A stretch of 64,000 nucleotides of DNA from Candidatus Thorarchaeota archaeon (GTDB lineage Archaea > Asgardarchaeota > Thorarchaeia > Thorarchaeales > Thorarchaeaceae): assembly GCA_016933575.1 (NCBI GenBank), contig JAFGAR010000040.1:32001-96000 (forward strand), written 5' to 3'. The position numbers and the translations under genes are program-made. Below, one piece after another: positions 31,764 to 33,102 of this stretch. The notes below the pieces were generated by a model. The model did not search any database. It worked only from the letters and a program-made list of their open reading frames with translations, and was not told the origin of the DNA. Position 1 is the stretch's first letter. Every line of letters starts with the position of its first letter.

Positions 31764-31871
31764 ATGGGTACTGAACCAAGATCCGCTGCCCATCAATATC
31801 GGGTCGCAAACGCAAAAGGTGACTGCCAAATTAAGTCATCAACACGAGGTGAACGTGTTCTTACGGTCTAG
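31764..31871 (+). CDS. Possible 35-aa leader peptide (uORF)
   Basis: GAGGTGA at 31749-31755, then ATG 31764; MGTEPRSAAHQYRVANAKGDCQIKSSTRGERVLTV*. Confidence 0.35.
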   Translation: MGTEPRSAAHQYRVANAKGDCQIKSSTRGERVLTV

Positions 31872-32190
31872 TGACCGTGAGGTACATCCTACTTTTCAGA
31901 GTCTTGTTGCATCATTCTTCAAATTAGCCGAGACTAGAATGAGTGATACGCAAAAGACTGTATTGAGGACAAGTCGTCAGCTATTGAAATTCCGTGATAT
32001 ATCCTTGACATCGCTGGCTGATTTAGTTTCTCGTCGTTCTGAAGTCCCTTACAGCACCGTGAAATGGAATCTACGCTCTCTAAAAGAGATGGGTCTGTTA
32101 ACTGGTGGGGATATGAGTTGCAAGGGAGAACACGCTCGTCTAACGCATGCGGCTCAGATGTTAGCGGATCATCTGGAGAAAGAGTATTAG
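31819..32190 (+). CDS. Winged-helix DNA-binding protein
   Basis: SLTSLADLVSRRSEVPYSTVKWNLRSLKEMGLL...ARLTHAA. Confidence 0.7.
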   Translation: MTAKLSHQHEVNVFLRSSDREVHPTFQSLVASFFKLAETRMSDTQKTVLRTSRQLLKFRDISLTSLADLVSRRSEVPYSTVKWNLRSLKEMGLLTGGDMSCKGEHARLTHAAQMLADHLEKEY

Positions 32191-32196
32191 AACAAA

Positions 32197-32221
32197 GGGG
32201 CTTCTTCAGCCCCCTTTTTTT
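32197..32221. terminator. Hairpin + T-tract between convergent genes
   Basis: GGGGCT-TCTTC-AGCCCC, then CTTTTTTT. Confidence 0.7.
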
Positions 32222-32261
32222 GATTAGGATATTCGAAAGAAGAGTAAGGGTGCTTCCCTGT

Positions 32262-32299
32262 CTCAACCGATACTGCTTTGCTTTACGTACCGATATCAT
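32262..32299 (-). promoter_or_regulatory. Eukaryote-type (form 2) SECIS element
   Basis: Minus strand AUGAU-AUCGGUAC-GU-AAA-GC-AAA-GC-A-GUAUCGGU-UGAG: AUGA/GA core, 8-bp helix, unpaired AAA, apical mini-helix. Confidence 0.8.
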
Positions 32300-33102
32300 T
32301 GAATCTTTTTATCGAACATCTCCAAGCCTTTTTGTGCAAGAGCTTTCGCCTCTTCAGGATTGGTCGCAGCTGCAAGAACGACATCCACAGTCTTGTGTTC
32401 TCCAGAATCATAGGATCCAAGATTCCATTGAAGCGCTGTGGCAATGTCTCTTGGTCCAAGCTCGAGGTTCTTACTTAGGTCGCGGTTTTCTTCATCGATT
32501 CTGAGTTTTGTGGGACTGCCAATTTCCCACGCATCAGCCTTCGGATTTGAAACCATAACCACACATAGCGGGTTGTCGTCGTAGGCAGCCATAATTCCAG
32601 ACACTGGATCATAGGTGCCGACATCATCCTTATAGCTGGTTGGTCCACCAACATCGAAGTCCATGAAATTGTAGAGTTTCAAGTCCTCAATGGTGGAACT
32701 GTTCGATAGGTTTGTCGTTTTGAAACGTACCAGCAATATCGGTGTGTTATAGCTCCACACCTCGAGATCAAATCGTGCCATGGGTGGTTGTCCTTCTACT
32801 GGAGAATGATCCAGAACAACGTGTAGTCTTCCATCCTGCGCATCTTCAGTTACTACGGAGATTGTGGCAATTTCAGTAGAGCTTACTCTGTGAACAATAC
32901 CGTCCACAATGTACGTGAGCGAAAATCCACCTTTGTAATCTGCAGGATTTCGTAGTAGTAGTCGTTCTTTCCCACTAGCATCGATCAGACTGAGGCGCTT
33001 GATGTAGAAACCTAGGCGACCTTTTCCTCAGGATGAACACTCGACAGCGTATGCGATATCCAACCTCGGACTGCGATTGCCCGTTTCAAGGATTTCAGAC
33101 AT
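32296..33102 (-). CDS. Putative selenoprotein (268 aa, Sec25 in CxxU), family not recognised
   Basis: ATG 33102 is in frame with ORF 32296..32907, with a single in-frame TGA at 33030-33028 in VECSS(U)GKG; SECIS at the 3' end. Confidence 0.8.

Follow-up and report, generated by a model that had tools for sequence, protein, structure and literature searches.

A probable SECIS element of the eukaryote-like Asgard type, folded around the stop codon of an unannotated selenoprotein gene of Thorarchaeota

The structured element at the 3' end of the minus-strand gene 33102..32299 is very probably the SECIS of an unannotated selenoprotein gene of Thorarchaeota, and belongs, as far as its letters, fold and conservation indicate, to the eukaryote-like type known from Asgard archaea. 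In the proposed structure the stop codon of the gene lies within a kink-turn, the last codons provide one strand of the helix below it, and a side hairpin completes a three-way junction. The features are the following, with positions counted in the window, i.e. the whole 64-kb stretch of DNA that was analysed.

32299..33102, minus strand: predicted selenoprotein coding sequence, 268 residues, from ATG 33102 to the last codon CAA 32301-32299
33028..33030, minus strand: in-frame UGA, codon 25, in the motif C-S-S-U-G, read as selenocysteine (Sec), 731 nt upstream of the SECIS core
32304..32320, minus strand: 5' strand of the lower helix (H1), from about the last eight codons (minimum free energy (MFE) fold, covariation, duplex test, codon bias)
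32296..32301, minus strand: putative bulged strand of the kink-turn, with C32301 (-1b), A32300 (L1), A32299 (L2), U32298 (L3), G32297 (1b) and A32296 (2b)
32298-32296, minus strand: stop codon UGA of the frame from ATG 33102, predicted L3-G1b-A2b of the kink-turn
32299-32296, minus strand: AUGA core, read directly from the sequence
32287..32294, minus strand: 5' strand of the upper helix (H2), AUCGGUAC, pairing with GUAUCGGU in 8 bp, two of them G-U
32274..32286, minus strand: apical loop GUAAAGCAAAGCA, 13 nt, with an unpaired GUAAA and then a possible 2-bp GC/GC mini-stem
32266..32273, minus strand: 3' strand of the upper helix (H2), GUAUCGGU, with the same evidence as its 5' strand
32262..32265, minus strand: putative non-bulged strand of the kink-turn, U-GAG, with U32265 (3n), G32264 (2n), A32263 (1n) and G32262 (-1n, pairing with C32301)
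32247..32259, minus strand: side hairpin (H3), AGGG, loop AAGCA, CCCU (covariation)
32228..32240, minus strand: 3' strand of the lower helix (H1), UCUU followed by UCGAAUAUC (MFE fold, covariation, duplex test)
32197..32214, no strand assigned: G+C hairpin between two convergent genes, followed by T7 on the plus strand and only by UUU on the minus strand

All the parts that the initial annotation had listed (AUGA, the 8-bp helix with two G-U pairs, AAA, GC/GC, U-GAG, side hairpin and lower helix) are found where it had placed them on the minus strand, and the AUGA core does contain the gene's own stop, the UGA at 32298-32296 ending the frame from ATG 33102. The extended three-way fold, in which GAUGUUCGA (32320-32312) pairs with UCGAAUAUC (32236-32228) in the lower helix, is also exactly the MFE structure returned by RNAfold (z = -3.2 for 141 nt and -2.4 for 98 nt), and is conserved across orthologues. 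Around the core, a Watson-Crick closing pair is followed by a 3-nt bulge N-A-U, by G.A and A.G pairs, by a non-Watson-Crick 3b.3n pair and then by the helix. As far as sequence and secondary structure go, the invariant and nearly invariant letters agree with a standard kink-turn and, because of this agreement, the stop UGA is assigned to positions L3-G1b-A2b. The 3' half of the core, U-GA-G, happens to be in this genome an in-frame UGA 11 codons past the stop; its first letter varies in the orthologues, so that this codon is not conserved. The G+C hairpin beyond the element had been taken for the terminator of gene 33102..32299, an assignment that is better revised: with its T-run on the plus strand it fits the convergent gene better, and looks like the terminator of that gene (31819-32190, plus strand) or a shared one. 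A similar G+C hairpin also trails the element in orthologues.

Covariation, which had been proposed as a check of the structure, is strong in both sets of sequences considered, namely 27 orthologous 3' ends and the 60 Sec-containing orthologues from 15 genera of Thorarchaeota. The paired fraction of the structure is 76% in the larger set, as compared with 39-47% when the partners are slid, and 87.5% as compared with 41-52% in the smaller one. Compensatory changes are found in all eight pairs of the upper helix, both in the 27 and in the 60 sequences (94% of cells paired in the latter), and in four of the five pairs of the side hairpin in the larger set (three of five in the smaller), the hairpin being present in 60/60 copies. 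The closing C=G pair is found in 60/60, UGA and the closing C being invariant in all 60, and the pair gains support from its swap, since it is G=C in the elements of vhuU and cysS (see below). On the 3' side of the core the A never varies and the G hardly does. In the apical loop AAA is invariant or nearly invariant and GUAAA is present in most copies, with UAAA, AAAA and GAAA as variants, and the two pairs of the GC/GC mini-stem are conserved almost without covariation in the 60 sequences; the GC of the side hairpin and the apical GC are both nearly invariant.

The lower helix shows compensatory changes in 7 of 12 pairs (27 sequences). Its register slips from clade to clade, and for this reason it was tested through the energy of the duplex between coding and untranslated strands, comparing native with mismatched partners in 5000 permutations. 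The mean was -15.8 kcal/mol for native and -11.2 kcal/mol for mismatched partners, with 0/5000 permutations as low; the duplex reaches -10 kcal/mol or less in 49/60 copies and, in one clade (7 copies), there is a weak A-U helix or none. The full three-way fold is the MFE structure in 42/60 copies. On the basis of covariation, of the slid-partner control and of the reversed-genome control given below, the fold at the 3' end is far beyond chance. Read-through of the terminal UGA was considered and rejected, as orthologues do not conserve the frame beyond it and differ there by changes that compensate each other in pairs.

The frame opened by ATG 33102 and closed by TGA 32298-32296 (minus strand) contains a single internal TGA, 33030-33028, when translated with TGA as U. 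Orthologues of the 268-residue protein were found in 66 of the 87 genomes of the order that were searched, and in 15 of 17 genera. Among the 61 full-length copies (41-68% identity), TGA is kept in the same column in 60 and is replaced by Cys in one, and the 24 residues on its N-terminal side are conserved, with T7, G8, P12-D15, Y18, E21 and C22 invariant. Because of the kept TGA column, of the single Cys and of the conservation of the preceding residues, gene 33102..32299 is predicted to be a selenoprotein gene that ordinary ORF calling shortens, and the proposal that one mRNA uses UGA twice, as Sec at codon 25 and as stop at the end, is borne out at this level. The genome that carries it (Candidatus Thorarchaeota, Asgard; a 3.47-Mb assembly, 85% complete) has a tRNA-Sec scoring 61 bits, above the Rfam cut-off, with a SepSecS gene (376 bits) adjoining it; within the 64-kb window itself ARAGORN found no tRNA. 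Six genes of the MvhD/VhuD family and SelD were seen in the same genome without an in-frame stop in the matched region (6/6, and SelD likewise), and the detectable selenoproteome may consist of two vhuU copies and the 268-residue protein, perhaps no more.

A covariance model of the core, R1, built from a subset of the orthologues, scores 24-49 bits in the held-out ones, with the match located precisely on the stop codon; in the own genome it matches only the site at 32299-32296. It is too family-specific to detect the SECIS of vhuU. Scores of the Sec copies span 24-52 bits; the sole Cys orthologue among the 61 (L011, G025:C61) scores 12 bits, which is at noise level, has a lower-helix duplex of -7.3 kcal/mol, i.e. 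a lost lower helix, and a fold z of -0.5, and still keeps the UGA...GA hairpin and the side hairpin. The loss of the element in a Cys orthologue, which the initial annotation had suggested looking for, is thus largely observed in the single case available. The genome concerned (G025) still has a Sec-containing vhuU, and tRNA-Sec and SepSecS were not found in its 89%-complete assembly. As the same genome keeps the Sec-containing vhuU, the change from Sec to Cys appears to be gene-specific and accompanied by a decaying SECIS, with the proviso that it is one case.

Searches with Rfam returned no SECIS family, either at gathering score in the 64-kb window or at E <= 10 in 32150-32400. The noise matches that were obtained (SraG, sraA, RybB) were driven by the terminator hairpin and were discarded. 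The expectation that eukaryotic SECIS covariance models might recognize the element was accordingly disappointed, which does not refute its identity, because both key papers report the failure of such tools on Asgard SECIS elements (PMC4989117, PMC11227280).

The same three-helix design is found at vhuU in the own genome, where the genes of VhuG, VhuA and VhuU lie in a row. In the vhuU SECIS of this genome and of 16 relatives, AUGA again contains the stop UGA and the loop again opens with GUAAA; a side hairpin comes next, and the last codons take part in a long lower helix. This structure is 91.6% paired, as compared with 38-49% with slid partners, and the stop lies in the core in all Thorarchaeota vhuU copies seen. 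Since the columns of the side hairpin do not align among the three classes of element (gene 33102..32299, vhuU and cysS), a Python descriptor combining core, helix, AAA, closing pair and side hairpin was used in place of a merged covariance model. Applied to all 3.47 Mb of the genome, this strict descriptor gives four matches, against none in the reversed sequence: gene 33102..32299, the two vhuU genes and a site on contig C38. The last one (minus strand, T of UGA at 108965), with AUAUGA ... UAA as a variant core, an 8-bp helix with one mismatch and a 6-bp side hairpin, is a candidate and may be due to chance. A first, loose descriptor had given 107 matches, mostly noise; one of these, within a hicA-like ORF of contig C38, was set aside as a false positive.

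Behind cysS, too, there is a three-way kink-turn element that resembles a SECIS (own genome, contig C184:18744-18834, plus strand, equal to L048:3745-3835). It has a lower helix AACCAGCA/UGCUGGUU, an AUGA...GA hairpin and a side hairpin with a GCAA loop, and is located about 30 nt past the cysS stop without overlapping it; cysS has no in-frame UGA and a convergent LarA-like gene lies opposite. Behind their own cysS, three further genomes of the genus (L128, L129 and L130) have kept the element, with compensatory changes. Since a similar element follows a gene without an in-frame UGA, the three-way kink-turn fold alone is not proof of Sec insertion.

In gene 33102..32299 the stop codon is the UGA of the core in 60/61 copies. 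The exception (L027, G031:C21) is 1 nt shorter between a conserved Trp and the UGA, within the last eight codons, so that its C-terminus is altered, the frame misses the core UGA and a UAA inside the GUAAAGC loop would terminate translation; either a derived deletion (a real frameshift) or an assembly error may be responsible. The last sense codon, which carries positions -1b, L1 and L2, is CGA in 44 copies, CAA in 8, CCA in 3, CGG in 2 and CAG in 2. AGA or AGG is found there in 0 copies, as opposed to a share of AGR of 48% of the Arg codons genome-wide. The two Lys codons ahead of it have a strong bias for AAG, matching the UCUUCU partner. Thus, the overlap imposes dual coding on the last codons, with C-N-A before UGA and AAG-rich Lys. 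Because the AF2 model shows the last three residues as disordered, the RNA accounts for their conservation better than the protein does.

Loki-type homologues from two genomes (L131, G044:C9; L132, G054:C220), about 26% identical, also have a conserved in-frame UGA near the N-terminus, in the motif I-L-A-T-U or I-L-A-L-U, with no Cys three residues earlier (i.e. without the CxxU cysteine). Their coordinates are those of HMMER, tblastn having given no match at 1e-2. In both, a lokiSECIS-like hairpin, a side hairpin and a lower helix are found 10-15 nt past a UAA stop. Given the in-frame UGA and the SECIS of these homologues, the 268-residue family would be a selenoprotein family beyond Thorarchaeota and, as in both a UAA stop precedes the SECIS, an overlap is not obligatory: it is a stable trait of the lineage rather than a requirement.

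As to mechanism, the folded element, probably together with a kink-turn-binding protein and the Sec-specific elongation factor, would allow Sec-tRNA(Sec) to decode UGA-25, 731 nt upstream, the junction bringing the factors of Sec decoding to a ribosome that has paused at that codon. By the time the terminal UGA enters the A site, the ribosome would already have unwound the lower helix and the core, and since the arriving ribosome would thus have melted them, the opened element could not act on the terminal UGA, which would be read as a stop. Whether the overlap was selected as a device, in that terminating ribosomes melt a genuine SECIS, as the initial annotation had suggested, and the ribosome traffic at the 3' end both gates or limits incorporation at Sec-25 and guarantees termination, is a further question, to which a positive answer seems rather unlikely. 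The overlap has been kept in 60/61 copies over 15 genera and in all the Thorarchaeota vhuU copies seen, the location of the lower helix in the coding sequence makes translation of the last ten or so codons and folding of the SECIS mutually exclusive, and Mariotti 2016 likewise argues that nearby UGAs are not recodable (PMC4989117). However, the Loki-type homologues carry Sec with the SECIS 10-15 nt past a UAA stop, the cysS-associated element has no stop overlap, and inertia can explain the conservation, as any shift would need simultaneous changes in coding and in RNA. Most simply, the overlap is a compact and long-frozen arrangement, rather than a proven regulatory device.

A broader proposal, to be taken as speculation with perhaps a slim chance of holding as a whole, would be that Asgard SECIS elements in general are kink-turn three-way junctions, in which the side hairpin and the kink-turn dock a hypothetical SECIS-binding protein, a functional forerunner of SBP2, that the burial of the stop in Thorarchaeota ties Sec decoding to ribosome traffic at the 3' end, and that the cysS copy, acting as a decoy or sensor, couples the metabolism of Cys to that of Sec.

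It was also considered that the fold might be a general kink-turn module at the 3' ends of Thorarchaeota mRNAs (e.g. an element bound by L7Ae and serving stability, processing or regulation) and not a Sec signal. An element of the same design behind cysS, with no in-frame UGA, in four genomes, and the part of the hairpin that the Cys orthologue retains are what such a module would predict; the strict motif, however, occurs only four times genome-wide, three of these at genes whose in-frame UGA is conserved, Sec and the element are found together in 60/61 copies, with decay of the element in the Cys copy, and the published features of Asgard SECIS elements are matched point by point, which makes the proposal quite improbable. 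The identification as a eukaryote-type SECIS, in the sense of the eukaryote-like type of Asgard archaea, stands instead on those features of the Asgard model, on the covariation and on the co-occurrence with Sec.

That codon 25 is a true stop, with a split gene, a pseudogene or a start at GTG 32907 and an unrelated 3' hairpin, is hardly credible, even though standard ORF calling does shorten the gene to a start at GTG 32907 and Pfam contains no family for the 268-residue protein, since the 24 codons ahead of the UGA are conserved as protein, 60 genomes keep UGA in this column and one has Cys, and the AF2 model includes the N-terminus in its beta-sandwich. This model has a mean pLDDT of 88 and covers the N-terminal 40 residues. 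The fold observed in it is an all-beta supersandwich, closest to the N-terminal domains of GH94 phosphorylases, to glucodextranase and to aldose 1-epimerases (Foldseek E ~1e-8, TM up to 0.71), with Sec25 in the turn joining the first two long strands.

If the SECIS assignment is correct, the element provides the decisive evidence that a protein present in 66 of the 87 Thorarchaeota genomes searched is a selenoprotein, whose gene is shortened by current pipelines. Furthermore, current models of Asgard SECIS elements comprise core, upper stem and loop only, and omit two conserved arms that sharpen searches (4 matches in 3.5 Mb, 0 in the control). A secondary structure backed by covariation may also be of use in studies of the origin of the eukaryotic SECIS, as regards the proteins that bind kink-turns, the function of helix I and the rule of minimal distance. 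The location of the stop in the core was already published in 2016 for Loki VhuU.1 (PMC4989117), and is not in itself a novelty for Asgard archaea (PMC4989117, PMC11227280). Indeed, Mariotti 2016 described the eukaryote-like SECIS of Lokiarchaeota, in which the AUGA of VhuU.1 doubles as the UGA stop, and argued that nearby UGAs are not recodable (PMC4989117), and Huang, Xiao and Zhang 2024 reported that stop codons often overlap AUGA in Asgard (PMC11227280). No SBP2 has been reported in Asgard archaea (PMC4989117, PMC9723677).

When the element is set against the lokiSECIS of VhuU.1 (PMC4989117), the AUGA...GA core, a single short upper helix, an A-rich start of the loop, the position at the end of the coding sequence and the stop in AUGA are in common. 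The protein differs, having 268 residues and a predicted beta-sandwich in place of the 50 residues of VhuU, with the Sec codon 731 nt away; and so does the hairpin, with an 8-bp helix and a 13-nt GUAAAGC..GCA loop here and 9 bp with an 11-nt AAAAA loop in VhuU.1, for which the main text of the paper has no lower helix or side hairpin.

The agreement extends to the Asgard eSECIS-like model of Huang 2024, which distinguishes types I and II, gives a G[U/G]AAA loop for the frhA SECIS of Thorarchaeia and comes with the report that SECISearch3 fails on such elements (PMC11227280). The GA_[G/A]A core and an upper stem within the range of 7-15 bp are shared, and GUAAA corresponds to the G[U/G]AAA of frhA. 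Point by point, the (A/G)UGA ... (G/A)A that flanks the upper stem is present as AUGA 32299-32296 and GA 32264-32263; the upper stem, for which 7-15 bp and <=2 mismatches are allowed, has 8 bp and no mismatch; the 5' part of the apical region has unpaired adenines; with its 13 nt the loop agrees with type I (8-20 nt), and GC/GC with its 3-nt loop formally with type II (mini-stem 2-8 bp, loop 2-6 nt), but with almost no covariation; and the gene that has the element at its 3' end contains a conserved in-frame UGA aligning with Cys, in a genome with Sec machinery. The published model, however, has a plain lower stem and an internal loop in place of the three-way junction with a conserved side hairpin found here, and no description of a side hairpin or three-way junction in an Asgard SECIS was found in the published texts consulted.

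With form 2 of the eukaryotic SECIS (RF00031 and relatives) the element shares the kink-turn-like quartet (AUGA 5', GA 3'), the unpaired adenines above helix II, a possible mini-stem, the 3' location and a distant UGA target; it differs from it in giving no Rfam match, in an upper helix of only 8 bp, in the extra hairpin 3' below the core and in the overlap with the coding sequence. The euryarchaeal SECIS, with a GC-rich stem of ~10 bp, a GAA_A bulge and a 3-bp GC upper stem, is unlike it, there being here no GAA_A between two GC stems and the helices being a mixture of A-U, G-U and G-C pairs. The VhuD SECIS of Methanococcales and Methanopyrus (PMC4989117) resembles it in having AUGA on one side and GAC or AAC on the other, between two stems, yet keeps the euryarchaeal GAA_A bulge and GC-rich stems, along with an extra stem.

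Beyond SECIS elements, a likeness that is limited to sequence and secondary structure links the element to kink-turns and k-junctions, i.e. the C=G closing pair, the 3-nt bulge, the tandem sheared G.A/A.G pairs and a junction right below a very short C-stem. K-junctions, known from work of the Lilley laboratory, are three-way junctions built on the k-turn. As for the protein, the 268-residue family is not among the seven Asgard selenoprotein families of Huang 2024 (PMC11227280) or the eleven archaeal ones of a 2026 review (PMC13188914). What appears to be new here, with respect to the lists of 2024 and 2026 as far as these were accessible, is thus a SECIS of known type in a selenoprotein family absent from both, together with a better defined three-helix architecture.
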